A stretch of DNA of 64,000 nt, from the NCBI GenBank assembly GCA_002371155.1, contig DFGC01000005.1:20024-84023 (forward strand). The letters run 5' to 3'. Source of the stretch: Alphaproteobacteria bacterium UBA3760. Lineage in GTDB: Bacteria > Pseudomonadota > Alphaproteobacteria > Rs-D84. Shown in pieces: positions 2,905-46,671 of this stretch; within the stretch, counting starts at the first letter, position 1; every line of letters begins with the position of its first letter. A model generated the notes under the pieces. That model saw only the letters and a program-made list of their open reading frames with translations, made no database searches and was not told the origin of the DNA. A program made the translations under genes and the position numbers.

Positions 2905-3687
2905 ATGGCAAGAAGTAAATTTAGAAAGTATGTTTTAGACCCTTTTTTGGGGCTGGATATTGTTCAATGGTGTATTGCGGTGCCGGTCGCAATTATCATG
3001 TGGTTGATGTTTATCACATGTTGCACGCATATTCGCAATAAAAAGGTTTTGAAAGAATATTCTAAAAAGCCGGCTGTGTTCGTGTTGTGGCATGGGCGGA
3101 CGATGATACCGACATTGGTTATGGGGTTGTATGGTATGCATGCATGTGCCGTCACCAGTCGCAATAAAGACGGGAGACTTATGGCGAAAATTCAGCATTT
3201 GTTTGGTGCGCGTGCCGTGTATGGCAGTACCAGCAACGGTGCGGTGTCTGTATTGCGGGCGGGGGTGCGTGTGTTGCGGAACGATGGGCGCAGTATTGTT
3301 ATGTGTCCCGATGGCCCCAGTGGCCCGTCTTTGCGATTGCAAGATGGTGCGATGTATTATGCAAAAATGGCGGATGTGCCAATTATTCCGGTATGCTTTG
3401 CGTCGTCGAAATCATGGTTCCAGACGCGTTGGGACCGGTATTTGATTGCGTTGCCGTTTTCTAAAAATATTATGGATGTGGGTGAGCCTATATTTGTAAA
3501 ATCAAAAATAAAATCGCCGGAATTTGAAAAAGAACGCAAAAAAATCGAGGATATTTGTGTTAAACAAATGCGTGATTTGGATAAAATGTTTAATTTAATG
3601 CAGGTCGAACAAGATATGACGGCGTCTGAATTCAAACAAAGAATGCGCGAAGCAAAAAAATTGCAAAAACAGGTAAATAAAAAATGA
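2905..3687 (+). CDS. DUF374-like lipid A-associated acyltransferase family protein (lysophospholipid acyltransferase-like)
   Basis: It lies upstream of lpxK and is translationally coupled to it, with an N-terminal TM segment. The start is taken at MARSKF (2905) rather than the upstream in-frame M, whose poly-F leader looks non-coding. Confidence 0.45.
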   Translation: MARSKFRKYVLDPFLGLDIVQWCIAVPVAIIMWLMFITCCTHIRNKKVLKEYSKKPAVFVLWHGRTMIPTLVMGLYGMHACAVTSRNKDGRLMAKIQHLFGARAVYGSTSNGAVSVLRAGVRVLRNDGRSIVMCPDGPSGPSLRLQDGAMYYAKMADVPIIPVCFASSKSWFQTRWDRYLIALPFSKNIMDVGEPIFVKSKIKSPEFEKERKKIEDICVKQMRDLDKMFNLMQVEQDMTASEFKQRMREAKKLQKQVNKK

Positions 3688-4625
3688 AAACACCAAAATG
3701 GTTTATGAAAAAAAATCTGGTTGCAATTTTATTATTGCCGTTGGCGGGTGTTTATTATTTATCCAGTCGGGCTGTGTTCAAATTGCGTGCGCGAAACCCG
3801 TTGCAATCAAAACGAAAAATTGTATGTATCGGAAATATTTTGGCGGGCGGTGTTGGTAAAACACCCATTGTGCGTCAGATTGCTGAATTTTTGGATGCGC
3901 CGGTTGTTATGCGTGGGTATAAACAAACACAATATACAAATGGTATCGGGGACGAGGCAATAATGCTGGCGCGGGGTGGATTAAATGTTCACACCGGGGA
4001 CAGAAAAAGTAATATCATTTTGTTGAATAAACAAAAATCCAAAAACCCAATTGTGATGGATGATGGATTCCAAAACCCAGCAATTAAAAAAGATATTTCT
4101 GTGATTGTTATAGATGAAAATTTTGGATTCGGTAATGGATTTTTGTTGCCGGCGGGACCAAAGCGCGAAACGGTTGCAGCGTTAAATCGTGCGGATGCGG
4201 TTATTATTATGCAAAATGCGCGTGCGCCAAAAAAATATCAAAGTCAAAAAAGTGTTCGGGACGCGTTAAAATTGCCTGAAAAAATGCCAGTGTTTTTTGC
4301 AGAAAATACTACGATTTCACCGTATGCGGAAAACGAGCCATTGGTTGCGTTTGCGGGAATTGGGTATCCGAAAAAGTTCTTTGACCGGTTGAAAAATGTT
4401 GTTGTGAAAAAATCTTTCCCAGACCATTATCAATATAATGATAAAGATTTGAAATATTTATTCGATTTGGCAAATAAAAATGATGCGCGTTTAATTACAA
4501 CTGAAAAAGATTGGGTGCGGTTGCCGGTGGATGTGCGCGATGAAATTAAATATGCCAAGTTGGAAACAAAAATAGAATCTAAATTTTTTGATTGGTTAGA
4601 GGGAAAATTAAATGGCGACTTTTAA
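3684..4625 (+). CDS. lpxK: tetraacyldisaccharide 4'-kinase
   Basis: P-loop GNILAGGVGKTP characteristic of LpxK, 313 aa, overlaps neighbours on both sides. Confidence 0.8.
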   Translation: MKTPKWFMKKNLVAILLLPLAGVYYLSSRAVFKLRARNPLQSKRKIVCIGNILAGGVGKTPIVRQIAEFLDAPVVMRGYKQTQYTNGIGDEAIMLARGGLNVHTGDRKSNIILLNKQKSKNPIVMDDGFQNPAIKKDISVIVIDENFGFGNGFLLPAGPKRETVAALNRADAVIIMQNARAPKKYQSQKSVRDALKLPEKMPVFFAENTTISPYAENEPLVAFAGIGYPKKFFDRLKNVVVKKSFPDHYQYNDKDLKYLFDLANKNDARLITTEKDWVRLPVDVRDEIKYAKLETKIESKFFDWLEGKLNGDF

Positions 4626-5550
4626 GAAAAAATTTGAAATAAACGGTGTTGGTATTCACAGTGGTGCGCCGGTGCGTATGGTTGTGCGTCCGCGCAAAGC
4701 GTCGGGAATTGTTTTTTATCGTGTTGATTTGGATAAAAATTTTCCCATAGATGCAATTTATTCAAATGTTGGGGAAACCAGATTCAGAAATACAACAATT
4801 GGTCAATTAAATGGCCCGCATGTCAAAACAATTGAACATTTTATGGCGGCGTTGCATGTTGTTGGTGTTGACAGTGCCGTTGTTGAAATAGATGGTGCCG
4901 AGGTTCCAATATTAGATGGCAGTGCGTATGAATTTGTTGAAAAATTTTTGTCGGTTGGTGTTGTTGGTGGAAAACCTAAAAAAATTATTGTTAAAAAAGA
5001 AGTTATTGTAAAATCCGCAGATGCGAAAAAAAATGTGCCGTTTTTGGAAAGGGCTAAATTTTGGATTTTGAATAAATTGGCGGGGCGAAAAACAGACGGT
5101 TTTGTAAAATTGTCCCCAAATGATGGGCGTGCGTTAAATATTACGGCGACATTGGTGTATCCTGAAAAAATTATTGGGGCGCAAAGTTTTTCTTATAAAT
5201 ACGATGGAACGAAAAAATCGCGCGATGTGTTTATTCGTGATGTTGCGCGTGCACGAACATTTGGAAAAATTTCTGAATGGGAAACATTAAAACGGCATGG
5301 TATGGGGCGGGGCGCATCGGAACATAATGTGATTGCCGTAAATGCCACAGGCGATGGGACATTAAATAAATTATATTGGGCTGATGAATTTGTTCGGCAC
5401 AAGGTTGTCGATGCGTTTGGTGATATGTTTACATCGGGTGGAATTATCATTGGTGATTTGGTGTCAAACAAGGGCAGTCATGCAATGAATAATTTGGTTC
5501 TGCGTAAATTATTTAGCGACCCGGAAAATTATGAAATTGTTGAAAAATAA
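4612..5550 (+). CDS. lpxC: UDP-3-O-acyl-N-acetylglucosamine deacetylase
   Basis: 312 aa. N-terminus KKKFEINGVGIHSGAPVRMVVRP and the conserved HF..A and G....H blocks of LpxC. Confidence 0.85.
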   Translation: MATFKKKFEINGVGIHSGAPVRMVVRPRKASGIVFYRVDLDKNFPIDAIYSNVGETRFRNTTIGQLNGPHVKTIEHFMAALHVVGVDSAVVEIDGAEVPILDGSAYEFVEKFLSVGVVGGKPKKIIVKKEVIVKSADAKKNVPFLERAKFWILNKLAGRKTDGFVKLSPNDGRALNITATLVYPEKIIGAQSFSYKYDGTKKSRDVFIRDVARARTFGKISEWETLKRHGMGRGASEHNVIAVNATGDGTLNKLYWADEFVRHKVVDAFGDMFTSGGIIIGDLVSNKGSHAMNNLVLRKLFSDPENYEIVEK

Positions 5551-8031: not shown

Positions 8032-8035
8032 AAAA

Positions 8036-9661
8036 ATGAGTAAGAATAAAATTGATGATGATTTGTCAAAAAAAACATCTGTGCCGGATGGTATGGATGG
8101 TGCCGAGGCAAAAGAAATCGTCGATTATTTGTTTTCTAATGGAAACCGGTTGCTGACCGCGACGGGTGCGCGGATGGAATTGTCCAAAGATGTCCAAAGT
8201 TTAATTGCGTATTTTTCAGGTGGTGAAATTATTATTTCCAGAACACATAAATATGATGGGCGCGTGTTGGCTTTTTTGGATTTATTGCGTGAAAGAAATA
8301 TGCCAAAACGGATTCCGTTTTATTCTGATTTAGGATTGATTTCGGCAATATACAAAACATATGAAGACCGGTTGGGTAATGTTGTTCGTGCGCGCACCGA
8401 TTATGATAATCAGATGCAGAAAGATTTTGTTGATATTATCGCGCGGGCGGCCGCACAAAAGGTGTCTGATGTGCATATCGAGGTCGCAGACCAAACAACA
8501 ATTTATTTCCGTATAGATGGCAGTATGCAACCTGTGTTGGAATATAATTCGGCATGGGGTGAATCGTTTGTTCGTGCCGCGTTTGCGTCTGCGGATATTT
8601 CAAATTCGAATTATGCACAAAATGAATACCAATCGGCACAGAAAGACGGACGAACACCGTTGCGTGGAACCAAAGATTTATATCTGCCAAATGGTGTGAC
8701 CAGTATTCGTATGCAATTTAATCCGATTGCGTTTGGGTCGCGTTATGTCGTTATGCGATTGTTGTATGATAACCCGTCCGAAGGTATTAAAACAGAACAG
8801 GAATTTGGTGAATATGAACAAAATTTGTTGATGCGTTTGCGTGCGTATCCAACGGGTTTGGTGATTGTTGCGGGTCCGACATCGTCAGGTAAATCTACGA
8901 CTTTGGTGCGAAATATGGCGTTGATGTTAAAAGAACGTAATTATGAAATAAATATGATAACGGTGGAAAATCCGGTTGAACAAAAAATTTTTGGCGCGCA
9001 TCAGATGCCGGTTGTGAACGCTATGAACGAAGAACAACGCGATGAAAAATATACCGAGGCTTTGGCGGCGGCATTACGCAGCGACCCCGATACATTGATG
9101 GTTGGTGAAATACGAACTTTGGCGGCGGCACAGTTGACGGTGCGTGGTGCGTTGTCGGGGCATAATGTTTGGACAACATTGCATGCGAATTCTGCGATGG
9201 CGGCATTGACCCGTTTGTTGGATATGGGTGTTGAAAGTTTCAAGTTGAAAGATGAAACACTGATGCGCGGATTGGTGTCTATGCGGTTATTCAAAAAATT
9301 ATGTCCGCATTGTCGTGAACCGTTGGTAAATCATCCAGAACACCCGGCGTATCGGCGTGTCAAAGATGCGTTCGGTATGGTTGGTGTAAAGCAGACTTTT
9401 GTTCGTGGTCCCGGGTGCAGCGAGTGCAAAGGTTCGGGAACATTTGGACGAATCAAGGCGGGCGAAATCATTATTACAAACAGTGAATTTTTACGATTGG
9501 CATTGGCGGGGAATACTGATTTGGCCATGAAATATTGGTTGGAAGAAATGGACGGACGTACATTGAAAGAGGCCGCCGCGGAATTGATGTTAAAGGGTAT
9601 TATTGGTGTCGATGAATTAGAACGGTGGGTCGGATTATTGGATAGACCTGGGGAATATTAA
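8036..9661 (+). CDS. type IV pilus / type II secretion family assembly ATPase (GspE/PilB; R64 PilQ-like)
   Basis: Walker A GPTSSGKSTT, Asp box, His box and a C-terminal tetracysteine motif CPHC...C..C typical of GspE-family ATPases. Confidence 0.8.
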   Translation: MSKNKIDDDLSKKTSVPDGMDGAEAKEIVDYLFSNGNRLLTATGARMELSKDVQSLIAYFSGGEIIISRTHKYDGRVLAFLDLLRERNMPKRIPFYSDLGLISAIYKTYEDRLGNVVRARTDYDNQMQKDFVDIIARAAAQKVSDVHIEVADQTTIYFRIDGSMQPVLEYNSAWGESFVRAAFASADISNSNYAQNEYQSAQKDGRTPLRGTKDLYLPNGVTSIRMQFNPIAFGSRYVVMRLLYDNPSEGIKTEQEFGEYEQNLLMRLRAYPTGLVIVAGPTSSGKSTTLVRNMALMLKERNYEINMITVENPVEQKIFGAHQMPVVNAMNEEQRDEKYTEALAAALRSDPDTLMVGEIRTLAAAQLTVRGALSGHNVWTTLHANSAMAALTRLLDMGVESFKLKDETLMRGLVSMRLFKKLCPHCREPLVNHPEHPAYRRVKDAFGMVGVKQTFVRGPGCSECKGSGTFGRIKAGEIIITNSEFLRLALAGNTDLAMKYWLEEMDGRTLKEAAAELMLKGIIGVDELERWVGLLDRPGEY

Positions 9662-9663
9662 AA

Positions 9664-10734
9664 ATGGAAGAGTTAGAATTATTTTATGCAAAAATGGTGT
9701 TCAAATTTAATACAGAACGCCGGTTGGCTTTGATTCGCAAATTGGCATCATTGTTGCGGAATAATTTTTCTTTGATGGATGCGTTGGTCAGAATTGAAAA
9801 AATCGAATCTGATAATGGGCGAAAACCGGATGAACCGTATGCAATCGCAATGCGGATGTGGCAAAAAAATCTGGAAATGGGTATGAGTTTTTCTGATGCG
9901 ACGCGTGGTTGGTTGCCGGCGGAAGAAACATTATTGGTGACAAGTGGTAATGTTGCAGATTTGGTTGTTGCGCTGGAAAATGTCGATAAAGTTGTAAATG
10001 GAACAACCAAAATAAAGCGCGCAATGAGAAGCGCAATTGCGTACCCATTGTTTTTGTTGATTTTGACATTTGGTATTATTGTTATGGTTGGAATGTATTT
10101 GGTGCCACCGTTGGCGGATGTGGCGGGGCCAAATGTTGTGTGGCATGGCGCAGCAAATTTGTTGATAATGGTATCTGAATTTTCAATAAAATATTGGTCT
10201 GTGATTTTGGTTGCGTTTGTTTTGTTATGTGTTTTGGTGTGGTTCAGTTTGTCAAATTGGACTGGATGGTTGCGGGCAAAATTTGATAAATTGCCACCGT
10301 GGAATATATATAAAATGCATACATCGGTTGGGTGGTTGATGTCTTTGGCGGCTTTTGTTGCGGCGGGGGTGTCTATGCCGGATGCAATGCGTATTTTGGC
10401 GGATAATGCAAACAAATATTTGCGTGATATTTTAGACGAAACATTACGGTATATTGCAAATGGTGATAATTTAGGTGTCGCGTTGTCGAATACAGGTCGC
10501 GATTTCCCAAATCAAGAAATTATTGGCGATTTAACTATTTATTCTGAAATGAATGATTTTGATGCAAATATCGAAAGATTGGCAGATGATTATTTGCAAA
10601 ATTCTGTGCGAAAAATGGAATCGATATCCAGCACATTGAACAGTTTTGGAATTTTATTGGTATCGGCAATTATCGCATGGGTTGTGTTGGCAACTTTCCA
10701 AATGCAAGACCAAATTACAATGATGTTATCATAA
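9664..10734 (+). CDS. GspF/PilC-family inner-membrane platform protein (R64 PilR-like)
   Basis: 356 aa polytopic membrane protein with the GspF-type three-TM architecture and two cytoplasmic domains. It starts 3 nt after the ATPase gene. Confidence 0.7.
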   Translation: MEELELFYAKMVFKFNTERRLALIRKLASLLRNNFSLMDALVRIEKIESDNGRKPDEPYAIAMRMWQKNLEMGMSFSDATRGWLPAEETLLVTSGNVADLVVALENVDKVVNGTTKIKRAMRSAIAYPLFLLILTFGIIVMVGMYLVPPLADVAGPNVVWHGAANLLIMVSEFSIKYWSVILVAFVLLCVLVWFSLSNWTGWLRAKFDKLPPWNIYKMHTSVGWLMSLAAFVAAGVSMPDAMRILADNANKYLRDILDETLRYIANGDNLGVALSNTGRDFPNQEIIGDLTIYSEMNDFDANIERLADDYLQNSVRKMESISSTLNSFGILLVSAIIAWVVLATFQMQDQITMMLS

Positions 10735-16008: not shown

Positions 16009-17019
16009 ATGAATAAAGAATTTAATTTTTTGGTATATAACACTCCAAACCAAGATGTTAAAATAAATGCTATGGTACGGGATGACACAATCTGGCTTAC
16101 CCAAAAATCTATGGCTGAATTGTTCGGAGTTCAGATTCCCGCTATTAGCAAACACCTTAAGAATATATTTGAAGAAGGTGAATTAGATGAAAAAGTGGTT
16201 GTTTCCAAAATGGAAATAACCACTCAACATGGAGCAATATCCGATAAAACTCAAACATCAGAAACCCAATTTTATAATTTAGATGCTATTATATCTGTTG
16301 GATACAGGGTTAATTCTGTTAAAGCCACTAATTTCAGAATATGGGCAACCAAAGTTTTACACGAATATATTCAAAAGGGGTTTGTTCTGGATGACGAGAG
16401 ATTAAAACAAGGCAAACAAGCCTTTGGCAAAGATTATTTTCGTGAATTATTAGAACGTGTCCGTTCTATTCGTGCATCTGAACGCAGAATATATCAACAA
16501 ATCACAGATATATTTGCAGAATGCTGCATTGATTACGATAAGAATTCAGATATTACTAATAATTTCTATGCAACTGTTCAAAACAAATTCCATTATGCAA
16601 TTACTGGTCAAACTGCTGCTGAAATAATATATACAAAAGCGGACAGAACGAAAGACAATATGGGATTAACCACATGGAAACATTCACCAGATGGACGGAT
16701 TTTGAAATCAGATGTAGGGATTGCTAAAAACTATCTTTCTGAAAAAGAAATCAAACAGTTGGAACGAACTGTATCTGGATATTTTGATTATATTGAAGAT
16801 TTAATTGAACGAGAAAACACATTTACAATGGCCGAATTTGCAAACAGTGTAAACGAATTCTTGGCTTTCAGAAAATACGATGTACTGCCAGATAATAATC
16901 ATGGTCGTATATCAAATGCAAAGGCTATTAAACATGCAGAATCAGAATACGCTGCATTTAATAAAACCCAAAAAATAGAATCTGATTTTGATAAACAGGT
17001 TAAAAAAATGTTAAAATAA
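16009..17019 (+). CDS. RhuM-family virulence-associated protein
   Basis: Characteristic N-terminus NAMVRDDTIWLTQKSMAELFGVQIPAISKHLKNIFEEGEL and a conserved central region. Its codon usage is atypical for this window (CTT, AGC, GGA) and its local GC is lower. Confidence 0.6.
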   Translation: MNKEFNFLVYNTPNQDVKINAMVRDDTIWLTQKSMAELFGVQIPAISKHLKNIFEEGELDEKVVVSKMEITTQHGAISDKTQTSETQFYNLDAIISVGYRVNSVKATNFRIWATKVLHEYIQKGFVLDDERLKQGKQAFGKDYFRELLERVRSIRASERRIYQQITDIFAECCIDYDKNSDITNNFYATVQNKFHYAITGQTAAEIIYTKADRTKDNMGLTTWKHSPDGRILKSDVGIAKNYLSEKEIKQLERTVSGYFDYIEDLIERENTFTMAEFANSVNEFLAFRKYDVLPDNNHGRISNAKAIKHAESEYAAFNKTQKIESDFDKQVKKMLK

Positions 17020-17573: not shown

Positions 17574-17601
17574 TTGACAATTTAATTTTTTGGTGTATAT
17601 T
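17574..17601 (+). promoter_or_regulatory. near-consensus sigma70 promoter (TTGACA-16-TATATT)
   Basis: Perfect -35 hexamer and a strong -10 element, 35 nt upstream of the GGAGG RBS and the ATG at 17635. Confidence 0.45.
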
Positions 17602-17634
17602 ATGCTCATAATAAAACATTTATGGAGGCAAAAT

Positions 17635-19389
17635 ATGTTATTAGTGAACATGGATAATGTACCACGTAGAGAGTTGAATAAATTGCAAATTTCGGAAATT
17701 TTGCATGGTATTATGCGTATGGAAAAATCATCAAATCCGGATAAATATGCCCGTTGTATGCCGGAATATAGTCGTTTTGTGTCACGGTATGCTTTTGCTG
17801 TAAATGGTGGTAAAATTAAAATTTCTGATAAAAACATTGTTGCAACGGTGAATTTTTTGGAAAAAATGTCAGGGAGTATTCCGTGTGAAGTTGAGTGTGT
17901 TGATAGTGCTGTATCTAAATTAAAGATACAATATGCCAATGCAATTATAAGCGGGCGTGTAAATGTACCAAAAAAAGATTTAAAATATGTAATTGATGGT
18001 TTTGAATCAGAATTAAGACGTAATAATGATGATAATAATGTTATAACATCTGCGCTGGAAAAAATCAGACCGTTATATCAAGAAATGTGTCAAGAAGATA
18101 AAGATGAATTTGTCCAAAATCCATCCAAAGTGTTTTTCGAAAAACAAAAAGAGCGTAGCGAGAAAAAAGAACAGTTGAAAAATTTAGGATTGAAGGAACG
18201 CATAAAAAAGAAAGTGGCGGGTGTGGCCCAATCGTGCGAGCAAAAAATTGCAGAAAAAATTGAACAATATAAAAATGTAGCACAACAAAAAGCACAAGAA
18301 CGTAAAGAAAAAGTTGCAGCAAAAAGGGAAAAACGCGAAGCAAAAACAGGTGTTTTAAAACCGTTGTTTGCTCGTGCCATGCCATATGCAGCAAGCGTTT
18401 TGTTGTTGGTGGGAATAACATTTGGTTTTTCGCAAGATTCAACGCATGCAGGTGAAACAGATGCATCGAATAAAGACAATAAAACAAAAGTTGCAAAACA
18501 AAACACCAAAAATAATGAAGAAAAAACATATATGGTATCTGAACAAGATTTGGCGCGTGCGAATGGTAATTTTGCTGTGCAACAATCTGAACCAGTTGTT
18601 AAAGATACGGTTGTCAAACACGACCAGAAAATTGCACCAAAACCGGTTGTTAAAAATAATGCAAATGTTAAATCGTCTGACAAATTTTATGATTCCAGAT
18701 TGGATAAATTCTTTGGAGATAAAAAATCTGATGTTTTGCAAAAAATACAAAATCGTATGCAAAATGTTGATTTGGGTGGTATCAGTGCAGAACGCGTTGC
18801 ATACACCATGGGGGTTTATTCGGCATATGGATATAATATCGATGTGTTGAATAATTTCGTAAATGGTGCGGAATTAAATTCAGACCAAATCAAAGAATTA
18901 AAATCTGTCATAGATTTGGCAAAACCACATGGAACCGGTGTTCGTGATTTGGCGGCGGCGCATATAACATCGCGTGAAATTCATGAAATGTGCGCATGTG
19001 GCGATAAATCAAGTGCCGAAAAAAAGATTGCGCAAGCAAAATCAAATGTTAAATCATCAAACGACAGTATTACAAAATCTGATGTGTTGAAAATGGTCAA
19101 CGATAATATCAAATGTGGTAAATCTGTGCTGAATCCAGATGATTCGGCAACATTGACTAAATTGTTGTTGCAAAATAATTTGGGGCCAGATGATTGTGCA
19201 AATATGACCAAATTGTTGTTATTGGCGGGTGTTGATAAAAATATTGTAAATCAAATCGTGCGTCAAAATAATTATTCGAATACTGTTTTAATGCCTGATA
19301 ATTATGTGCAGCGGCTTGAAAAACAAAGTGGTCAGAAAAAGCCAGTGTGGTATTCACGCTGTTTCAGAATATCACGGTATTCACGATAA
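17635..19389 (+). CDS. orphan lysine-rich coiled-coil protein with single central TM helix (hypothetical, possible secreted/effector-like)
   Basis: 584 aa. K/E-rich N-terminal half, the TM segment ASVLLLVGITFGF and a C-terminal half with no recognisable motif. It has a consensus promoter and RBS and is AT-rich. Confidence 0.5.
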   Translation: MLLVNMDNVPRRELNKLQISEILHGIMRMEKSSNPDKYARCMPEYSRFVSRYAFAVNGGKIKISDKNIVATVNFLEKMSGSIPCEVECVDSAVSKLKIQYANAIISGRVNVPKKDLKYVIDGFESELRRNNDDNNVITSALEKIRPLYQEMCQEDKDEFVQNPSKVFFEKQKERSEKKEQLKNLGLKERIKKKVAGVAQSCEQKIAEKIEQYKNVAQQKAQERKEKVAAKREKREAKTGVLKPLFARAMPYAASVLLLVGITFGFSQDSTHAGETDASNKDNKTKVAKQNTKNNEEKTYMVSEQDLARANGNFAVQQSEPVVKDTVVKHDQKIAPKPVVKNNANVKSSDKFYDSRLDKFFGDKKSDVLQKIQNRMQNVDLGGISAERVAYTMGVYSAYGYNIDVLNNFVNGAELNSDQIKELKSVIDLAKPHGTGVRDLAAAHITSREIHEMCACGDKSSAEKKIAQAKSNVKSSNDSITKSDVLKMVNDNIKCGKSVLNPDDSATLTKLLLQNNLGPDDCANMTKLLLLAGVDKNIVNQIVRQNNYSNTVLMPDNYVQRLEKQSGQKKPVWYSRCFRISRYSR

Positions 19390-26410: not shown

Positions 26411-26827
26411 ATGCAAGAATTTATTTTACCTGATTTGGAGGCAACACATAAATGGGCGCGCGAATTTGCAAAAACTTTGCATGCGCCGGTTGTCGTTGCG
26501 TTGCACGGTGATTTGGGTATGGGAAAATCTGAGATTGCACGAACAATTATTCGGACTTTGCGTGGGGAAAAAACGATTGTGCCGTCGCCGACATTTACAA
26601 TTGTGCAAAACTATGACGGAATTTCGCATTTCGATTTATACAGAATTTCAGATGAATCTGAATTGACCGAGGTTGGTTTGCCATATGCAATCCAAAATGA
26701 TATTACAATTATAGAATGGCCCGATGTCGCCGCGGGCATGTTGCCGGAAAATACAATTCATGTGTATATTTCACTGTGTGGCGCGGATTGCGGGACGGGC
26801 CGTAAAATTATTGTTAAACAGAAATAA
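26411..26827 (+). CDS. tsaE: tRNA threonylcarbamoyladenosine biosynthesis protein TsaE
   Basis: 138 aa with the GDLGMGKSEIAR P-loop typical of the TsaE/YjeE family. Confidence 0.7.
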   Translation: MQEFILPDLEATHKWAREFAKTLHAPVVVALHGDLGMGKSEIARTIIRTLRGEKTIVPSPTFTIVQNYDGISHFDLYRISDESELTEVGLPYAIQNDITIIEWPDVAAGMLPENTIHVYISLCGADCGTGRKIIVKQK

Positions 26828-26837
26828 TATTTTGTTT

Positions 26838-28610
26838 TTATTTCCTTAATAAACTTTGCACCGCCAATGGAAAATCGTTCGATTTTGCCAGGTATGAACC
26901 ACTGATTAAAAAATCTGCGCCGGCATTCCAACATTTTTGTGCGGTTTCTGGATTTATTCCGCCGTCCACAGATATTATGTATTTTAATCCATGTTTTTTT
27001 CGTGTTGTTGATAATGCCAATATTTTCTGTAATACAGATGTGTTAAATTCTTGGCCTGATGCGCCGGGGGCAACCCCCATAACCATAACTTCATCAACAT
27101 CACGCAAAATCGGAACAAGTTGTGTTATTGGGGTGTCTGGGTTTATTGCGACACCCGCGCGACGGCCCGTTGCACGAATCCCGCGTAATGCCGCACGAAC
27201 CCCAGTCGTGTTTAATGATAAAATAATTGTGTTCGCCCCAGCCTTTATCGCGTTTGCCGCCCAGACCGATGGGTTTTCGGTCATTAAATGAACATGTAAA
27301 TGAAAGTTTGTGTTTGCGCGGATTTCTTTTAATTCGGCAATACCGCCGGCAACATGCGGAACATAAAATCCGTCCATTATATCAACATGTATTGTTGATA
27401 TGCCGGCGGATGCAAATAATTTATATGTCATTGGTGATAACATATTAAAGCATAATGTTGATGGTGCGATTGGTATAAATTTTGGCTTTTGTTTTTTAGG
27501 TTTTCGCACAAATATTTTCGTGATTTTATTTATGAATTTTTCGTGGCGTGCCATGCGTGCCATATATGCGTCGCGCGCAGGTTTTTCCGAATCCCATATA
27601 TAATTAGAAATTGCTGTTATGGTTGCGTCGGCATGATGATTTTCAATCGGTAATCCAAATGCGTTTCCGACAAAGTCAACCACACCTTGGATTTGGGTGC
27701 CGCCGCCACTGATTATTATTTTGGTTGGTTGATATTTTGCAACATGTGGTTCGGCAGATTTTTTGATTTCTCCGATAATATCAACAATGCGTGGAACAAC
27801 AACATCGTTCACATCGCCGCGTGTGAAATCATATGCGGTATCGGCGGGGGTCATGCGGTCCATTGCGCGTGGAATTAAATTTGCAACCATGCGTTTTATG
27901 CGTTCGGCTTCGTCAAAATCGATATTTAATGATTTTGTTAAATCGTTTGTTGCGTTGGACATGCCCATAGGAATTTTTTCGTGCCAACATACACCGGAAT
28001 CGTTCCAAATTGAACATCCGGAAAATTCTGCGCCCATGTCGATAAACATTACGGTTTCGCCCGCGCGACGCAAAGTCATATTTTGCAAATATGCCGGGTC
28101 AAAAACACCGTCATATTGAATATGTGTTTTTCGCAATATGGATATAATTTCGTTTATGCGGTCGGTTTCATAACAAATGATTCCAAAAGTTGATATCAAT
28201 TGATGGTCGGTGTATCCCACCGGGGTTTGGATTTTTCGTGCAGATGCCGTATCGTATTGAAATGGCATTATGTGAATTGGTGTAAATCCCGACGGAAATG
28301 TCAATTTAGAAATCTGGGCACGAATATCACCATCGGTGATTTTATGCTCGCCGTTCCAAACGGTGTTTTGTTGTTGGTGCATAAATACAGATTTCCCAAA
28401 ATTCCCGGTTATGTATGCCGATTCAAAATGTGTGTTTAATTCATGCTCTAAATTATCAATTACTGATTTTATGGCAAATTGTTGGTTAAAACTGTCGCAC
28501 ATGGCGGTTGCGGATTTTACGATTTTTCCAGAAATCACACGATGCGCAATTCCGCGAACACATGATGTTCCGATGTCCAGACATAAAAAGCATGAATCAA
28601 GCAAGTTCAT
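26838..28610 (-). CDS. FtsA (actin-like cell-division ATPase) fused in-frame to ribulose-phosphate 3-epimerase (Rpe)
   Basis: The N-terminal 370 aa or so carry the FtsA motifs (LDIGTS phosphate-1, FIDMGAEFS phosphate-2, IISGGGTQIQG adenosine) and end in an amphipathic KFINKITKIFVRK helix. The same frame, without a stop or start codon, continues into an Rpe domain (IAPSTL..., HVDIMDGFYVPH, HLHVHLM, GADFLISGS). Confidence 0.6.
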   Translation of the reverse strand: MNLLDSCFLCLDIGTSCVRGIAHRVISGKIVKSATAMCDSFNQQFAIKSVIDNLEHELNTHFESAYITGNFGKSVFMHQQQNTVWNGEHKITDGDIRAQISKLTFPSGFTPIHIMPFQYDTASARKIQTPVGYTDHQLISTFGIICYETDRINEIISILRKTHIQYDGVFDPAYLQNMTLRRAGETVMFIDMGAEFSGCSIWNDSGVCWHEKIPMGMSNATNDLTKSLNIDFDEAERIKRMVANLIPRAMDRMTPADTAYDFTRGDVNDVVVPRIVDIIGEIKKSAEPHVAKYQPTKIIISGGGTQIQGVVDFVGNAFGLPIENHHADATITAISNYIWDSEKPARDAYMARMARHEKFINKITKIFVRKPKKQKPKFIPIAPSTLCFNMLSPMTYKLFASAGISTIHVDIMDGFYVPHVAGGIAELKEIRANTNFHLHVHLMTENPSVWAANAIKAGANTIILSLNTTGVRAALRGIRATGRRAGVAINPDTPITQLVPILRDVDEVMVMGVAPGASGQEFNTSVLQKILALSTTRKKHGLKYIISVDGGINPETAQKCWNAGADFLISGSYLAKSNDFPLAVQSLLRK

Positions 28611-28612
28611 TT

Positions 28613-29305
28613 TTATTTAACCAATATTCGTGCCGGGTCGCGCATATCTATGACGCGAATATCGCGACCCAATAAATTGTGTGCTTTGTCGATAGTTATT
28701 AAACTGGCAATCGCAGAAACAAAATCGTTTTCGGGTAATTTTATTGTTATTCCGCCCGTTGTTTGAATGTTCCAACGGCGGTTTTCAATCCATTCTATAT
28801 AATCTATGTTCGATATCATATCGTTTGCCGCGTTTGTGATGTCGGATATGTCATTTGGTAATTGACCGCGAAATAATAATGTTGATTCGGGTCTGTCCGT
28901 GATTGGGGATTTGTCGTCATATTTGCCGTCCGCAGATAATGGATAGAAATATTCGCCGTCTGTATATGTTGCGATAAATTTACGGTATGCAACATTTATT
29001 ATTAAATTTCCGTTCGGCATACGGCGGATTGCGCAATCTTTGACCCCGGGAACATTTAATATGTTCGCGTTCAGGTTGTCCAAGTCAATCGAATAAAATG
29101 AAGTGTTTTTTGGTAATGCCGCCGCCGCAGATAATGCCGTCATGTCTTTGTTGCCAACATCGGCGGTTATGTATGTTTTATGCAATCGTGCCATGGGGCC
29201 AATGCCCATACCAACCATTATTGTGCGTGATATAAAATATATTGCCAAAATTATGGCGACAATAAATGATAACCAAAACCAAATTGAACGCTTCATGTTT
29301 GGCAT
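28613..29305 (-). CDS. ftsQ: cell division protein FtsQ (POTRA domain)
   Basis: 230 aa with an N-terminal TM and a periplasmic POTRA-like region. Its stop abuts the ftsA-rpe start. Confidence 0.55.
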   Translation of the reverse strand: MPNMKRSIWFWLSFIVAIILAIYFISRTIMVGMGIGPMARLHKTYITADVGNKDMTALSAAAALPKNTSFYSIDLDNLNANILNVPGVKDCAIRRMPNGNLIINVAYRKFIATYTDGEYFYPLSADGKYDDKSPITDRPESTLLFRGQLPNDISDITNAANDMISNIDYIEWIENRRWNIQTTGGITIKLPENDFVSAIASLITIDKAHNLLGRDIRVIDMRDPARILVK

Positions 29306-29350: not shown

Positions 29351-29731
29351 TTATATCGCCCGCAACAAGTATCCGCGTCGGAACATGCAACGGCGATATG
29401 CCCCCAGGGTGCGCGATGATTTGTTTCGTGGAACCGACATCAATGACCGTTGCCCGACATCGCGATATTCGTTGGATTGAAATGTCACCCATATTCCATC
29501 CCAATTCGGCATTTGGTCATTCTGGTTTGGTAATAACAATCGTGCAATACGCGACCGTGGGGTGTAATTATTGGATTTTATCCCCAGGCATGATTTGTGG
29601 TCACGAACAAATTGTTCGGTGGTGACAGCCTCGTTTTCCCAGTTTAATATGGTGGCATTGTCAATGTCGCCGCGATTGGCGGATGCACATGCCGTTAAAG
29701 CAAGTAATAAAGCAATTTGTTTTATTTTCAT
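29351..29731 (-). CDS. hypothetical lipoprotein
   Basis: Signal peptide with an LTAC lipobox. 126 aa. Confidence 0.4.
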   Translation of the reverse strand: MKIKQIALLLALTACASANRGDIDNATILNWENEAVTTEQFVRDHKSCLGIKSNNYTPRSRIARLLLPNQNDQMPNWDGIWVTFQSNEYRDVGQRSLMSVPRNKSSRTLGAYRRCMFRRGYLLRAI

Positions 29732-29805: not shown

Positions 29806-30126
29806 ATGGCTATATCGGTTCAGAATTTTATAAAACTGGCAAACTTTTATAACCAGATGTTGACGACAATGTCGGCAATCTGTGTGGAAAAGGGCGGTAT
29901 CAACATGGAAAATTATGTTGGACGATTCTTTGTCGCGGATGTTTTGGAATACATTGTTGAATATGGTCGCCGATTAAATGAATCGCAAAAGGTGCCGGCG
30001 GATGTTGCCCGCGTTATGAAAATTTTTCAACAAAGATTTGAATCTGTCAAAGATTTGGTGACCCCAACGGAAAAGCCTATTTATGAAATGACATTGGAAG
30101 AATTTGAAAAACTGATGAATATATAG
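29806..30126 (+). CDS. hypothetical protein
   Basis: 106 aa with a strong RBS (AGGAAGGA). It lies 12 nt upstream of the secretin-like lipoprotein gene. Confidence 0.35.
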   Translation: MAISVQNFIKLANFYNQMLTTMSAICVEKGGINMENYVGRFFVADVLEYIVEYGRRLNESQKVPADVARVMKIFQQRFESVKDLVTPTEKPIYEMTLEEFEKLMNI

Positions 30127-30138
30127 TATGGTGAGAGT

Positions 30139-43482: not shown

Positions 43483-45063
43483 ATGAATATGAATAATATG
43501 TTGGAAATGGCTGTTCGGCAATGGCCCGAAAATCTGTTTCTGGTGCGCGAAGGTGTTTCGTATTCTGAATTTATGGATATGGTGCGCGCGCGCGCGGTGA
43601 CATTGATGGACAACGGGATTAAACCCGGGGATACGGTCGGTGTGTTATCACATAATATTCCACAATTTCCATTGACGCTGTTTGCGATATGGTATGTTGG
43701 TGCGAAATGTTTGATGCTGGATACGAATTTAACACCGTTTGAATATGATAATATGGCGGATGCCGCCGGATGCAAATTTGTGTGCGCGGAATCGTCGTTT
43801 TTCTATAAAACGGATAAATTCAAATTTATCGATATTACCGCCAAAGATGGTCCGGTAAATCCGATGCTGCATCCATATAATTTCCAAGACAACGATGTTG
43901 CAACATTGTCTTTTACATCTGGGTCAACAGGCGTGCCCAAAATTGTGCCATTGACACACTATAATTTAATAGAGTGTGCAAATTCGTTGGAAGATATGGC
44001 GGAATATTTTGGTTCGGGTGATATTATGTATGGATTTTTACCACTGTATCATATATTCGGTTTTGCCATTGGAATTTTGGCGACGGTGCATTTTGGCGCG
44101 GGTATCGTGTTGCAACCAACAATAAATCCGAAATACATTTTGGACGATTTCAAAAAGTTCCGTCCGCATGTGATTCCGGCTGTGCCACGGTTATGGGAAA
44201 TGTTCAGAAATAAAATTATGGACAATCTGAAAACGCAAAAAAAATGGAGTATCGTCGATTTTATTTTGCGTAATCGTGTTCGTATAAATGATATGGGGCT
44301 GGGATTTTTTGTTCGTAAAGTCCAAGAACCAATTTTGGATATTTTCGGTGGTCGTGTGCGTTTGTTGATTGCCGGTGGTGCCGCCACCAAGCCCGAGGTT
44401 GAAACATTTTACGAAAACCTGGGGTTGGCATTTATCCAAGGTTATGGTTTGACGGAAACGGTTGGTCCAATTTGTATATCAAAGCCAAATAAAAAACGTA
44501 TGGCGTTTTCTGTGGGGGCGCCAACAACAAATAACGAGTGTGAAATTCGTGATAAAGACGAAAATGGCATTGGGGTTTTGTGGCTGCGTGGACACCAGGT
44601 TTTTGGCGGATATATGAATAATGACGCGGTGAATAAAGAGGTGTTCGATGAACGCGGGTTCTTTAATACCGGGGATTTGGTGTATATGGACAAAAATGGC
44701 GAATTGCACTTTGCGGGGCGTAAAAAACAGGTCATCGTTCTGGATAGTGGTAAAAATGTTTATCCAGATGAATTAGAGGCTATGTTTTTGGATATCCCGG
44801 GTGTTAAAAATGTCGCGGTGTTTGAACATCGGGTCAAAGACAAAACGGTTGCATACGGCGTGTTTTCGGTCGATAAGGATATGACAATGGAAAAATTGGT
44901 TGCCGAGGTTAGTGCGGCAAATAAAAAGGTTGCATCGTATAAATGGGTGACCCATTTTGCAATGACAACTGATGATTTGCCGATGACATCAACCCAGAAA
45001 ATAAAACATCATGTTGTTCGTCAAAATTTAATTGATGGTAAATATCCAATTAGACATGAATAA
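43483..45063 (+). CDS. adenylate-forming enzyme (acyl-CoA/acyl-ACP synthetase-like, ANL superfamily), paralog 1
   Basis: Motifs TSGSTGVPK, GYGLTETVG, TGDLVYMDKNGELHFAGRKK. 526 aa. Confidence 0.65.
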   Translation: MNMNNMLEMAVRQWPENLFLVREGVSYSEFMDMVRARAVTLMDNGIKPGDTVGVLSHNIPQFPLTLFAIWYVGAKCLMLDTNLTPFEYDNMADAAGCKFVCAESSFFYKTDKFKFIDITAKDGPVNPMLHPYNFQDNDVATLSFTSGSTGVPKIVPLTHYNLIECANSLEDMAEYFGSGDIMYGFLPLYHIFGFAIGILATVHFGAGIVLQPTINPKYILDDFKKFRPHVIPAVPRLWEMFRNKIMDNLKTQKKWSIVDFILRNRVRINDMGLGFFVRKVQEPILDIFGGRVRLLIAGGAATKPEVETFYENLGLAFIQGYGLTETVGPICISKPNKKRMAFSVGAPTTNNECEIRDKDENGIGVLWLRGHQVFGGYMNNDAVNKEVFDERGFFNTGDLVYMDKNGELHFAGRKKQVIVLDSGKNVYPDELEAMFLDIPGVKNVAVFEHRVKDKTVAYGVFSVDKDMTMEKLVAEVSAANKKVASYKWVTHFAMTTDDLPMTSTQKIKHHVVRQNLIDGKYPIRHE

Positions 45064-45088
45064 ATGGTTTTTATAAAGGAATATAAAA

Positions 45089-46669
45089 ATGAATATGTAT
45101 GAATTGTTGGAAAAAAATATAAAAAGAAATCCGAAAACGGTTTTCTTGGTGCGTGAAAATATTACTTTTGAAGAATTACCAAAATATGTGCGTGCGCGCG
45201 CAACTACATTGGCCAAGGCGGGTATAAAACCCGGTGATACGGTTGGGTTGTTGTCGCATAATTTGCCTGAATTTGTGTTCAGTTTGTTCGCAATTTGGTA
45301 TTTGGGTGCGCGTGTTTTGTTGTTGGATACAAATTTGACTTCGGTTGAATATGATAATATGACGGAATTGACCGATTGTAAATTTGTTGTTGCGGAAAAG
45401 TCTTTCTTTTACAAAACAAAAAATTTCAAATTTATCGATATCCAGGCCCCAGATACCGAAACAGATGAATCGTTGAAACCGTATAAAATCAAAGATTCTG
45501 ATATTGCGACATTGTCGTTCACATCGGGTTCGACGGGAACACCAAAAATTGTGCCGTTGACACATAAAAATTTGGTTTCTTGTTCGGAAAGTTTGGAAAG
45601 TTTGAATATATTTTTGCGCCCGGGTGAAATGCTGTATGCGTTTTTGCCGCTGTATCATGTGTTTGGGTTTGCCGTTGGATTTTTGGCACCATTGCATTTT
45701 GGTATGGGTATGTTGTTGCAATCAACAATCAATCCAAATGCAATTTTGCAAGATTTTGCAAAATATAAACCACATGTTATTCCGGCGGTGCCGAAATTGT
45801 GGGAAATTTTCCGCAAGAAAATCATCGATGGTGTGCGCGAAAAGAAAAAATGGTGGTTGGTGTCTTTCATTATGAATCATCAAAAAACTTTGCGTGCAAT
45901 CGGTTTGGGCAAATTGGTTGATAAAGTATTGAATCAAATTCGTGCGGTGTTTGGTGGTCGCGCCCGTTGTTTGGTCGCAGGTGGTGCCGCAACCAAGCCC
46001 GAGGTTGAAAAATTCTATACTCAATTAGGGATGGATTTTGTCCAAGGTTATGGTATGACCGAAACGGTTGGACCAATCTGTTGTTCGAAACCGGTTAAAA
46101 AACGCGTTCCGTTTGCGTTTGGTGCGCCGTTGGGTGATTGCTGTTGCGAAATTCGTAATGCTGATGAAAATGGTATCGGTATGTTATGGGTCAAAGGCAA
46201 CCAGGTGTTCGGTGGGTATCTGAATAATGACGCGGCGAATAAAGAATGCTTTGATAAAAACGGATTCTTTTGCACGGGGGATTTGGTGTCGATAGACAAA
46301 AATGGTGAATATCATTTTGCTGGTCGTAAAAAACAAGTCATTGTTTTGGATTCGGGTAAAAATGTCTATCCTGATGAATTAGAAGGATTATTCATCGAAA
46401 TCCCGGGTGTTAAAAATGTCGCCGTGTTCGAGCACGAGGTCAAAGGCAAAACTGTATCATATGGTGTGTTTTCGGTTGAACCGGATATGACCATGGAACG
46501 GTTGTCTGCGGAAATTGCCCAGAAAAATAAAAAGGTTGCGTCATATAAATGGGTGACCCATTTTGCGATGACGACTGATGATTTGCCGGTGACATCCACA
46601 CAAAAGGTTAAACATCATGTTGTGCGTAAATATTTAATGGATGGTAAATATCAAGAAAAGGATATTTAA
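45089..46669 (+). CDS. adenylate-forming enzyme, paralog 2
   Basis: The same motif set (TSGSTGTPK, GYGMTETVG, TGDLVSIDKNGEYHFAGRKK). It lies 25 nt after paralog 1. Confidence 0.65.
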   Translation: MNMYELLEKNIKRNPKTVFLVRENITFEELPKYVRARATTLAKAGIKPGDTVGLLSHNLPEFVFSLFAIWYLGARVLLLDTNLTSVEYDNMTELTDCKFVVAEKSFFYKTKNFKFIDIQAPDTETDESLKPYKIKDSDIATLSFTSGSTGTPKIVPLTHKNLVSCSESLESLNIFLRPGEMLYAFLPLYHVFGFAVGFLAPLHFGMGMLLQSTINPNAILQDFAKYKPHVIPAVPKLWEIFRKKIIDGVREKKKWWLVSFIMNHQKTLRAIGLGKLVDKVLNQIRAVFGGRARCLVAGGAATKPEVEKFYTQLGMDFVQGYGMTETVGPICCSKPVKKRVPFAFGAPLGDCCCEIRNADENGIGMLWVKGNQVFGGYLNNDAANKECFDKNGFFCTGDLVSIDKNGEYHFAGRKKQVIVLDSGKNVYPDELEGLFIEIPGVKNVAVFEHEVKGKTVSYGVFSVEPDMTMERLSAEIAQKNKKVASYKWVTHFAMTTDDLPVTSTQKVKHHVVRKYLMDGKYQEKDI

Positions 46670-46671
46670 TC

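Follow-up and report, generated by a model that had tools for sequence, protein, structure and literature searches.

A probable ancient fusion of ftsA to the ribulose-phosphate 3-epimerase gene in genome-reduced gut Alphaproteobacteria

The window, by which is meant the whole 64-kb stretch of DNA that was analysed, carries on its minus strand an ORF of 590 aa in which an FtsA-like protein runs in frame into ribulose-phosphate 3-epimerase (Rpe), and on the presence of such an ORF the ORF list, Pfam and NCBIfam all agree with the original prediction. The genes at the locus and the parts of the ORF are as follows.

3684..4625: lpxK, about 22 kb from the fusion gene
4612..5550: lpxC, likewise about 22 kb from the fusion gene
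26411..26827, plus strand: tsaE, convergent with the fusion gene (PF02367, 106.6 bits; TIGR00150, 89.6 bits)
26838..28610, minus strand: ftsA::rpe fusion ORF, 590 aa and 65.2 kDa, stop codon 26838-26840 included
27585..28610, minus strand: FtsA-like actin-fold core, aa 1-342, with a 1C/SHS2 subdomain and ATP-binding motifs (Foldseek, TIGR01174, PF14450)
27510..27584, minus strand: tail helix, aa 343-367 (a DSSP helix in the AF2 model)
27471..27509, minus strand: polybasic, proline-containing spacer VRKPKKQKPKFIP, aa 368-380 (disordered in the AF2 model)
26841..27470, minus strand: ribulose-phosphate 3-epimerase (beta/alpha)8 barrel, aa 381-590 (PF00834, NF004076, 2FLI alignment, Foldseek)
28613..29305, minus strand: ftsQ, 230 aa (FtsQ_DivIB_C, 38.2 bits; POTRA_1, 22.2 bits)
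29351..29731, minus strand: lipoprotein-like ORF, 126 aa, upstream of ftsQ, with a signal peptide and an LTAC lipobox

Two Pfam domains lie within this single polypeptide, FtsA (PF14450) at aa 189-326 with 47.4 bits against a cutoff of 31.8 and Ribul_P_3_epim (PF00834) at aa 396-574 with 154.9 bits against a cutoff of 21.1, and the frame between the two halves is free of stops, as had been claimed. The AF2 model of the whole fusion has a mean pLDDT of 90.3 and a pTM of 0.60; a pTM of this size suggests no fixed interface between the FtsA and Rpe domains and therefore gives no evidence for one, and the two are predicted to be independent, well-folded units joined by a flexible basic tether.

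That the ORF opens with a full FtsA actin-like domain is borne out by PF14450 and more extensively by fold. A Foldseek search of the PDB with the fusion model returned FtsA at every one of ranks 1-18 (top matches 3wt0, 3wqt, 7q6i, 1e4g and 7q6d), with TM scores of 0.68-0.76 normalised by target, E values of about 1e-24 and alignments of about 350-387 columns against targets of 334-388 residues; FtsA is also the best family for the N-terminal half when phmmer is run against the PDB. By Foldseek the actin/ASKHA fold with the FtsA-specific 1C (SHS2) subdomain is present in the fusion, and SHS2_FTSA gives weak Pfam matches in the orthologues P0134 and P0140. The phosphate-1, phosphate-2 and adenosine motifs for ATP binding are present in the window protein (LDIGT at aa 11-15, IDMGA at aa 190-194 and GGG at aa 302-304), and across 81 sequences D12, G14, D191, G193, G302 and G303 are invariant, with G304 kept in 77; the motifs are degenerate or absent in the distant members P0134, P0140, P0147 and P0148. 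Canonical FtsA (E. coli 7Q6D, T. maritima 1E4F/4A2A, S. aureus 3WQT, V. maritimus 7Q6F) has in common with the fusion the actin fold and 1C subdomain, the ATP-binding motifs and a gene position straight after ftsQ, and where it carries a basic amphipathic membrane-binding tail after the core (PMC7613929) the fusion has a basic amphipathic helix at the same place. In contrast to canonical FtsA the core of the fusion is shorter by about 40 residues, ftsZ is not next downstream, and the amphipathic helix is internal and followed by a 210-aa enzyme domain. Identity to the solved FtsA structures is 14-16% only, and TIGR01174 scores 83.9 bits over aa 44-337, under its equivalog cutoff of 175.85; the FtsA domain is divergent but complete.

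Divergence of this order could also be read to mean that the N-terminal half is some other FtsA/PilM-like ASKHA protein, of metabolism or pilus assembly, and not the divisome FtsA. Besides the low identity and the sub-cutoff TIGR01174 score, PilM and EutJ models match this half weakly, ftsZ is not adjacent, and a type IV-pilus/T2SS-like cluster lies within the same window. We regard such an identity as quite improbable, given that FtsA beats PilM by sequence (83.9 versus 34.8 bits), that the 18 leading fold matches are all FtsA, that the SHS2_FTSA matches in orthologues speak for FtsA, that an FtsA-like basic amphipathic tail follows the core (PMC7613929), and that the fusion gene begins 2 nt after ftsQ in essentially every genome.

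The Rpe half scores 179.6 bits with the NCBIfam rpe subfamily model NF004076 (cutoff 165) and 164 bits with the stricter equivalog TIGR01163, under its cutoff of 212.6. Block-mean pLDDT is mostly around 90 over aa 381-590, and the Foldseek match to S. pyogenes Rpe (2FLI) has a TM score of 0.91, an rmsd of 1.4 A and 35% identity, so that the model and this match together place a (beta/alpha)8 barrel here. A residue-by-residue alignment pairs H408, D410, H441 and D549 with H34, D36, H67 and D176 of 2FLI; these metal and catalytic ligands are invariant in the 81 sequences, as are S384, G519, Q520, G571 and S572 of the Ser, GQ and GS phosphate-binding motifs. The Rpe TIM barrel is complete, and the original description of a complete Rpe domain is confirmed by PF00834, NF004076, the 2FLI fold and the ligand match. 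Free-standing Rpe (S. pyogenes 2FLI, potato 1RPX, Synechocystis 1TQJ) has the same metal and catalytic ligands and phosphate-binding motifs. The barrel of the fusion differs from it in lacking its own initiator Met, with a first strand (IAPS) that runs directly on from the FtsA tail, in falling under the TIGR01163 cutoff and possessing its own family-specific invariant residues (C387, F388, M390, C560 and W561), and in that some sublineages carry catalytically dead versions.

The stop codon of ftsQ (TAA, 28615-28613) and the ftsA ATG at 28610 are 2 nt apart, and therefore ftsQ and ftsA::rpe are probably translationally coupled; the original prediction was right to place ftsQ upstream, although the strict abutment of stop and start that it described gives way to this short gap. 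Placed against the order ftsQ-ftsA-ftsZ, ftsQ is directly upstream of the fusion in 79 of 80 loci, and also in the distant loci L081-L087. The lipoprotein-like ORF upstream of ftsQ, for which there is no Pfam match, is syntenic in 57 loci, with a gene of 124-127 aa in L082-L087, and may open the operon; ftsQ and ftsA::rpe probably form an operon, perhaps together with this gene. A promoter-like site is seen at 29767-29739 on the minus strand, and such sites are here no commoner than chance. At the other end tsaE stops 10 nt from the stop codon of the fusion, is convergent downstream in 54 loci, and bounds the division operon at the place usually taken by ftsZ. A tblastn search with E. coli FtsZ found no ftsZ in the 64-kb window nor within about 10 kb of the fusion gene in 87 related loci, the loci inspected amounting to about 2% of each genome. 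The proposal of a broken dcw cluster with tsaE, and not ftsZ, as the downstream neighbour is thus locally correct, and lpxC does sit next to lpxK some 22 kb away. A second FtsA or Rpe half was likewise absent from the roughly 10 kb around the gene in all 87 loci.

Relatives with the same fusion are plentiful. Among the best 80 of 171 GTDB species matches all 80 genomes hold it in one uninterrupted ORF of 588-598 aa, these being species-level genomes of Ca. Enterousia, order Rs-D84, independently assembled in different projects, with the closed circular long-read genome OZ007020.1 among them. At 90% identity there are more than 120 clusters with 100% coverage and both Pfam domains; at 50% identity about 25 clusters are full-length fusions, down to 28% identity, below which the protein search drops sharply to free Rpe at about 130 bits, and distant members of 30-34% identity still have ftsQ directly upstream. 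The host lineage is one of uncultured genome-reduced gut Alphaproteobacteria, the Ca. Enterousia / Rs-D84 group and relatives. An artefact of assembly or sequencing, where a hidden frameshift, a missing stop or a chimeric join made the long ORF, had been among the readings offered at the outset; the window is a single sequence given without its read support, and one related scaffold (L086) does have an assembly defect inside the fusion gene. Since all 80 independent assemblies have the frame intact, as do the clusters at identities from 99% to 28%, and since the L086 defect splits the fusion gene and does not create it, this reading is refuted and its probability is practically nil. One apparent free-standing Rpe (P0135, 209 aa, 69% identical) was rejected, being on scaffold L086, where 10 N and a duplicated flank lie inside an ordinary fusion gene. 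Short matches such as P0124, P0127, P0132 and P0133 align to partial stretches of the fusion and are presumed to be fragments.

Both halves are under strong purifying selection: where dS is unsaturated, sequence pairs give a dN/dS of about 0.03-0.07 in the FtsA half and of about 0-0.05 in the Rpe half. This bears on a recent deletion scar, the reading in which the junction is decaying while intact ftsA and rpe are at work elsewhere, and for which the strong genome reduction of the lineage (PMC12306168) offers a setting. Decay is at odds with an omega far below 1 in both halves, with active-site residues essentially invariant in 81 sequences and a conserved linker length, with a fusion older than the divergence to 28-30% identity and conserved in gene order, and with the want of a second copy of either half within the 10 kb or so around the gene in the 87 loci; a scar or pseudogene can be set aside as exceedingly unlikely, if by a hair less so than the artefact. 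It had further been supposed that a separate ftsA or rpe elsewhere in the genome would make the junction gene a pseudogene, which does not follow, because selection is seen on the fusion itself.

What joins the two halves is a helix and a short basic spacer. Along the tail helix (aa 343-367) pLDDT drops from about 88 to 66, and its C-terminal half, HEKFINKITKIFVR, is amphipathic, with F359, I360, I363, I366 and F367 on one face. The helix KFINKITKIFVR has a hydrophobic moment of 0.70, against 0.62 for the membrane-targeting sequence of E. coli FtsA, and presumably it is the former C-terminal membrane-targeting helix of FtsA. The offset of the best amphipathic 14-mer is shared by 37 of 81 sequences. 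Membrane targeting is no more than plausible, since the family mean moment of 0.67 is reached by 21% of shuffles of the same tails; of the amphipathic membrane-targeting helix first described, the amphipathic character stands, with a moment that does not rise significantly above the shuffles. The distant subgroup P0141-P0145 shows no obvious amphipathic helix, having a disordered basic linker only. Beyond the helix pLDDT falls below 50 at aa 372-375, the length of the spacer is near-invariant (indels of at most 1-2 residues in the alignment of 81 sequences), and the net charge over aa 355-380 is on average +9.1, ranging from +5 to +12.

Start codons were sought in 81 genes over the 59 codons that surround the junction. 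The linker of the window sequence does have in-frame ATG (M350, M353) and GTG (V368) codons, contrary to the claim that there was no plausible start between the halves, but the claim holds in that no in-frame start upstream of the first strand of the barrel is conserved across the 81 genes and no Shine-Dalgarno-like motif precedes such linker codons in relatives. Further in, an ATG or TTG codon directly precedes the conserved Pro-Ser of the first strand in 46 of 81 sequences; a Shine-Dalgarno-like motif accompanies this position in 1 of the 81, and starts at or within the first strand altogether in 3. An invariant ATG at +10 was considered as an Rpe start and rejected, as it lies inside the barrel past the first strand and has no Shine-Dalgarno-like motif. 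The ORF might still yield two proteins, by cleavage in the spacer or by an internal Rpe start, the fusion then serving co-expression only: the disordered spacer, rich in Lys, Arg and Pro, is a plausible protease site, the first-strand ATG or TTG would favour an internal start, and the pTM of 0.60 fits separate FtsA and Rpe. Such an outcome seems improbable to us, given that the first-strand start is missing from the window's own subgroup, which has Ala382 there, and from many others, and almost always goes without a Shine-Dalgarno-like motif, that a near-constant spacer length is not expected of a mere cleavage site, and that a barrel working only as a free enzyme gives little reason for P0134, P0288 and P0139 to keep a dead one. 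From the sequence we infer a single stable polypeptide as the translation product.

The dead barrels just mentioned belong to two sublineages, both very AT-rich and with the gene order of the window, and their members P0134, P0288 and P0139 do not keep the full set of Rpe ligands and phosphate-binding motifs. P0134 and P0288 have H to Y, D to T and D to C replacements and no longer possess the Ser and GQ motifs, and P0139 has two H to N replacements and a loop deletion in its Rpe-like part. A search based on P0134 gave one further cluster of its kind, P0288, and in that one pair the Rpe-like part has a pN of 0.096 against a pS of 0.371 (Fisher p = 2.7e-12). Purifying selection on dead barrels hints at a non-catalytic role of the barrel in FtsA function. 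Because the dead barrel is retained under selection in two sublineages, the barrel has probably come to serve FtsA structurally as well, the most plausible form being an oligomerisation module; this is the least certain step of the proposal and draws on few AT-rich clusters. Data from the Enterousia-type sequences are for their part compatible with a passive fusion without coupling of the halves. Of the moonlighting fusion originally envisaged, the fusion is real and the moonlighting, that is functional coupling, is only hinted at by the dead-barrel lineages.

The reading we favour, and hold to be likely, is a genuine ftsA::rpe gene fusion fixed long ago, with an origin and roles as follows. 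The fusion would have had a single origin, through loss of the ftsA stop codon and of the nucleotides between it and a downstream rpe, in an ancestor where ftsZ no longer came after ftsA. The FtsA half would still serve division at the membrane, anchored there internally by the helix and basic spacer, and the Rpe half would supply the Ru5P/Xu5P epimerase activity of the cell, its N-terminal tether leaving the catalytic face (the C-terminal ends of the beta-strands) free. The barrel would then have gained its structural role for FtsA and been kept as a dead barrel in the two AT-rich sublineages. Rs-D84 genomes measure <1 Mb, have a coding density of about 90% and encode all non-oxidative pentose-phosphate steps but transaldolase (PMC12306168). 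A bolder view, which we put forward tentatively and think rather unlikely, makes the Rpe barrel an integral FtsA module at the membrane, oligomerising or sugar-phosphate-sensing, that controls FtsA assembly; if true, division would be hard-wired to pentose-phosphate status, and sublineages no longer in need of the catalysis would have kept the module as a pseudoenzyme. More extreme again, the cells may divide by an FtsA-Rpe scaffold without any FtsZ, a suggestion to be read against the 2% or so of each genome that was inspected.

Metabolic enzymes acting on the divisome in trans are known in UgtP of B. subtilis, OpgH of E. coli and GdhZ and KidO of Caulobacter crescentus, and these likewise link a metabolic enzyme or enzyme-like protein physically to the FtsZ/FtsA machinery; KidO, a non-catalytic enzyme homologue, parallels the dead-barrel lineages of the fusion. 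They are separate proteins that bind FtsZ reversibly and in response to metabolites, whereas the link in the fusion is covalent and to FtsA. Fusions of adjacent genes (of the 'Rosetta-stone' kind) occur in reduced genomes, and the removal of a stop codon and spacer during streamlining is an origin plausibly shared with them, yet FtsA and Rpe belong to unrelated processes and their fusion has been kept below 30% identity, outliving the catalysis of one partner. [quoted passage not shown] The fusion also lets one ask whether an oligomeric enzyme can tune FtsA polymerisation, with the dead barrels as a built-in evolutionary control between a structural and an enzymatic role. No published description of an FtsA-Rpe fusion was found in literature searches and, if true, this would be, as far as found there, the first covalent link between an enzyme of central metabolism and a core protein of the divisome.

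Databases name the fusion protein only "ribulose-phosphate 3-epimerase" or "hypothetical protein". Because annotation pipelines name the Rpe half alone or neither half, FtsA seems absent from Rs-D84 genomes, and Rpe seems present even where a sublineage probably has an inactive barrel; reconstructions of the metabolism and cell biology of these abundant symbionts of gut and rumen would be distorted by both errors.

The minus-strand ORF at 26838..28610 encodes 590 aa and, as the original prediction had it, runs from FtsA into Rpe without a stop codon (the junction reads ...ARMARHEKFINKITKIFVRKPKKQKPKFIPIAPSTLCFNM...). Pfam matches to both FtsA (PF14450, aa 189-326) and ribulose-phosphate 3-epimerase (PF00834, aa 396-574) fall on the one polypeptide. 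In NCBIfam the product passes for the rpe subfamily NF004076 (179.6 bits against a cutoff of 165), the top non-Rpe family being the ftsA equivalog TIGR01174 with 83.9 bits over aa 44-337, under its cutoff of 175.85. An AlphaFold2 model from an input alignment of 52 sequences has a mean pLDDT of 90.3 and a pTM of 0.60, and divides the protein as follows:

aa 1-342, actin-like fold
aa 343-367, long helix
aa 368-380, low-confidence stretch (pLDDT <50 at 372-375)
aa 381 to 590, (beta/alpha)8 barrel, first strand IAPS at 381-384

The high pLDDT together with the moderate pTM suggests that the two halves are independent domains on a tether and not partners in a fixed interface. In Foldseek comparisons with the PDB, ranks 1-18 belong without exception to FtsA (S. 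aureus, V. maritimus, T. maritima, E. coli and X. poinarii), with alignments of ~350-387 columns and TM 0.68-0.76 normalised to target, and the FtsA-specific 1C subdomain is therefore covered; next comes the S. pyogenes Rpe structure 2FLI (TM 0.91, rmsd 1.4 Å).

Three readings of the junction had been offered, a moonlighting fusion, a recent deletion scar and an assembly artefact, and the relatives bear directly on the last two. A search over 5.8 billion proteins found the same fusion in more than 120 clusters of ~590 aa, at 100% coverage, with both Pfam domains and identities of 56-99%. A scan of one genome per GTDB species gave 171 genomes with a relative; in the best 80 of these, mostly labelled Candidatus Enterousia or uncultured Alphaproteobacteria/Rickettsiales and sampled from rumen, colon and faeces of ruminants, horses, chickens and humans, the fusion is a single unbroken ORF of 588-598 aa every time (80/80). 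These include the circular long-read assembly OZ007020.1 (958,618 bp), and an artefact of assembly is incompatible with such a record. ftsQ lies immediately upstream in 79 of the 80 loci, a convergent tsaE-uvrB-asmA block follows downstream in ~54, and no second copy of the FtsA or Rpe half was found within ~10 kb of the fusion in any locus. HMMER run exhaustively over 1.84 billion cluster representatives extends the family to ~25 clusters of full-length fusions with identity as low as 28%, below which scores fall sharply, ordinary free Rpe appearing at ~130 bits. Four distant proteins (P0134, P0139, P0140 and P0143, 30-34% identity) are still encoded immediately after ftsQ, and three of the four loci keep the window's wider upstream order of lolC/D, a 435-450 aa ORF, a 106-aa ORF and a 126-aa ORF. 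At NCBI the distant members appear under "Rickettsiales bacterium" or "Alphaproteobacteria bacterium" as ribulose-phosphate 3-epimerase or hypothetical protein. Nei-Gojobori dN/dS, for pairs with unsaturated synonymous divergence, was:

FtsA half, 0.03-0.07
Rpe half, 0.00-0.05
linker, 0.04-0.5

A recent scar fits neither these ratios in the two halves nor the depth of the family. The fusion is neither artefact nor scar; it is a single orthologous two-domain ORF, ftsQ-linked and under selection. By phmmer alignment H408, D410, H441 and D549 are the metal/catalytic residues H34, D36, H67 and D176 of 2FLI, and together with S384, G519/Q520 and G571/S572 they are invariant in all 81 Enterousia-type sequences. 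The FtsA motif residues D12, G14, D191, G193, G302 and G303 are likewise invariant in 81/81, and G304 is present in 77. With dN/dS so low and the motif and catalytic residues so constant, both halves look functional in the window's lineage.

An apparent free-standing Rpe, the short protein P0135 from the distant locus L086, was rejected: in its scaffold an ordinary fusion gene is interrupted by a gap of 10 N with a duplicated flank. This metagenome scaffold defect (L086 2592-2981) leads gene callers to a false pair of FtsA (306 aa) and Rpe (209 aa), a caution when split and fused forms are counted.

One gene could in principle yield two proteins. The linker had been described as lacking a plausible start codon; a few ATG and GTG codons do occur there, and what holds is that none of the in-frame ATG, GTG or TTG codons ahead of the barrel is conserved across the 81 genes, three of which have none at all in the 45 codons before it. 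A Met or Leu codon within the first strand (PI[M/L]PS) is a possible start in 46 of the 81, with a Shine-Dalgarno-like motif upstream in one, and the window has Ala at that position. An invariant ATG ten codons later lies within the barrel, past the first strand, with no Shine-Dalgarno-like motif to serve it. Because starts are not conserved, Shine-Dalgarno-like motifs are scarce and linker length differs by no more than 1-2 residues across the clade, a separate translation start for the Rpe half seems unlikely. A proteolytic cut at the exposed basic spacer may give two proteins.

The helix ending the FtsA part had been assigned to membrane targeting, and its amphipathic character is borne out. 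In its final 14 residues, HEKFINKITKIFVR, F359, I360, I363, I366 and F367 share one face, and the hydrophobic moment of the window's 14-mer is 0.70 versus 0.62 for the membrane-targeting sequence of E. coli FtsA. The top-scoring hydrophobic-moment window falls at the same offset in 37/81 sequences, and aa 355-380 have a mean net charge of +9.1. In both helix and basic charge the linker looks like the membrane-binding tail of canonical FtsA, which binds membrane via a C-terminal amphipathic helix missing in the EcFtsA 1-405 construct (PMC7613929). The targeting role itself is less settled: 21% of shuffles of these tails attain the observed mean moment, and in the distant subgroup P0141-P0145 the linker consists only of a disordered Arg/Lys/Pro-rich stretch, and for these reasons the internal helix is held to be a likely, still putative, membrane-targeting element. 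The active site of a TIM barrel lies at the C-terminal ends of its strands, and therefore a tether at the N-terminus should not obstruct the catalytic face.

Around the fusion the window has the following genes:

3684..5550, lpxK and lpxC
26411..26827 (+), tsaE, convergent, 10 nt between its end and the fusion stop; then uvrB
28613..29305 (-), ftsQ, stop TAA at 28615-28613
29351-29731 (-), 126-aa ORF with signal peptide and lipobox (LTAC), without Pfam match
29806-31491 (+) and 31504-33499 (+), divergent conserved block adjoining the division genes: 106-aa ORF, 450-aa ORF, then LolC/E-like permease and ABC ATPase

ftsQ was rightly placed upstream, though its stop and the fusion ATG at 28610 are separated by a 2-nt spacer and do not abut. 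The prediction was also correct that tsaE stands where ftsZ would follow and that lpxC is remote, beside lpxK; no ftsZ was found across the 64-kb window, nor mur, ddl or ftsW among the ~45 window ORFs annotated by Pfam. Classically lpxC closes the dcw cluster, after ftsZ. DUF374-lpxK-lpxC lies 22 kb from ftsQ-ftsA::rpe in the window and 2-6 kb from it in distant lineages (L081 5104-7769, L087 15905-18464), a closeness that may be a vestige of an ancestral gene order. The 126-aa ORF is directly upstream of ftsQ in ~57 Enterousia loci, has a 124-127 aa counterpart in the distant loci L082-L087, and may encode an uncharacterised lipoprotein of the divisome, possibly at the head of the operon. The order of the divergent block is unchanged in loci of merely 30% identity, and its 450-aa ORF has a weak secretin/TonB STN match and nothing else.

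Distant, very AT-rich sublineages (GC 24-25%) retain the fusion and the window's gene order but have lost catalytic ligands of the barrel:

L082 10001-11770, P0134, and L084 5415-7187, P0288 (GC 25%): ligand His to Tyr and Asp to Thr, first-strand Ser and GQ phosphate motif gone, second catalytic Asp to Cys
L085 4568-6295, P0139 (GC 24%): two His to Asn, PGxxGQ loop deleted

These genes encode 575-590 aa, lie behind ftsQ as before and have PF00834 matches of 88.9 and 28.8 bits. When P0134 is set against P0288 (75% identity), pN is 0.096 and pS 0.371 in the Rpe-like part (Fisher p = 2.7e-12), whose omega of ~0.21 indicates tighter constraint than in the FtsA-like part (~0.37); thus a barrel probably incapable of epimerase activity is being retained by purifying selection. 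Dead barrels in a few clusters and one dN/dS pair are the sole hint that the barrel may contribute something to the FtsA half. The FtsA ATP motifs are degenerate too in the P0134 lineage, so the entire protein evolves differently there.

It is proposed that the fusion arose once, when the ftsA stop codon and the spacer before a downstream rpe were lost in an ancestor whose ftsZ would already have ceased to follow ftsA. Helix and basic spacer would hold the protein at the inner face of the membrane, where it would fulfil the division role of FtsA and supply the cell with epimerase activity; with less certainty, the barrel could also be structural, for example by clustering FtsA. As a free enzyme, Rpe forms dimers or hexamers, and the 2FLI deposition holds 12 chains. 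The nearest functional analogies are metabolic enzymes working on the Z-ring in trans, namely UgtP, OpgH, GdhZ and the enzyme-like KidO, none of which is known to be covalently joined to a core divisome protein. Public annotations call the fusion simply an epimerase, and full-text literature searches found no mention of an FtsA-Rpe fusion; its components are ordinary and its architecture is not.

The gut Alphaproteobacteria of Ca. Enterousia and the order Rs-D84 are uncultured; their genomes measure 0.75-1.0 Mb at a coding density of ~90%, and they are believed to live obligately on other cells as symbionts or parasites (PMC12306168). MreB, RodA and MrdA are present, respiration is absent, biosynthetic pathways are very few, and the non-oxidative pentose-phosphate steps are encoded, transaldolase excepted; that paper mentions neither FtsA nor FtsZ, and the fusion gene, named rpe by annotation pipelines, may be what it counts as Rpe.

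Elsewhere in the window, a type IVb-pilus/T2SS-like cluster at 5997-10734 (+) encodes a PilO-like accessory protein (PF06864), a T2SSE ATPase and a T2SSF platform protein, interspersed with ORFs without Pfam match; in the published Rs-D84 description, type IV pili are given only for another lineage (UBA9783), and a cluster of this kind in Rs-D84 goes unmentioned. Three tandem paralogous ORFs of 524-526 aa at 43483-48246 (+), the first an AMP-binding (acyl/aryl-CoA ligase-type) enzyme, form a set unusual for a genome <1 Mb. Three further genes are:

16009-17019 (+), RhuM-family virulence protein (344 bits), in a lower-GC stretch (~34-35% at 16-20 kb)
17590-19389 (+), ORF of 599 aa without Pfam match
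52694-54814 (+), ORF of 706 aa without Pfam match

GC content is ~40% and GC skew is strongly and evenly positive throughout the 64 kb (0.05-0.33 in each 2-kb bin), and the window therefore lies inside one replichore with unusually strong strand asymmetry.
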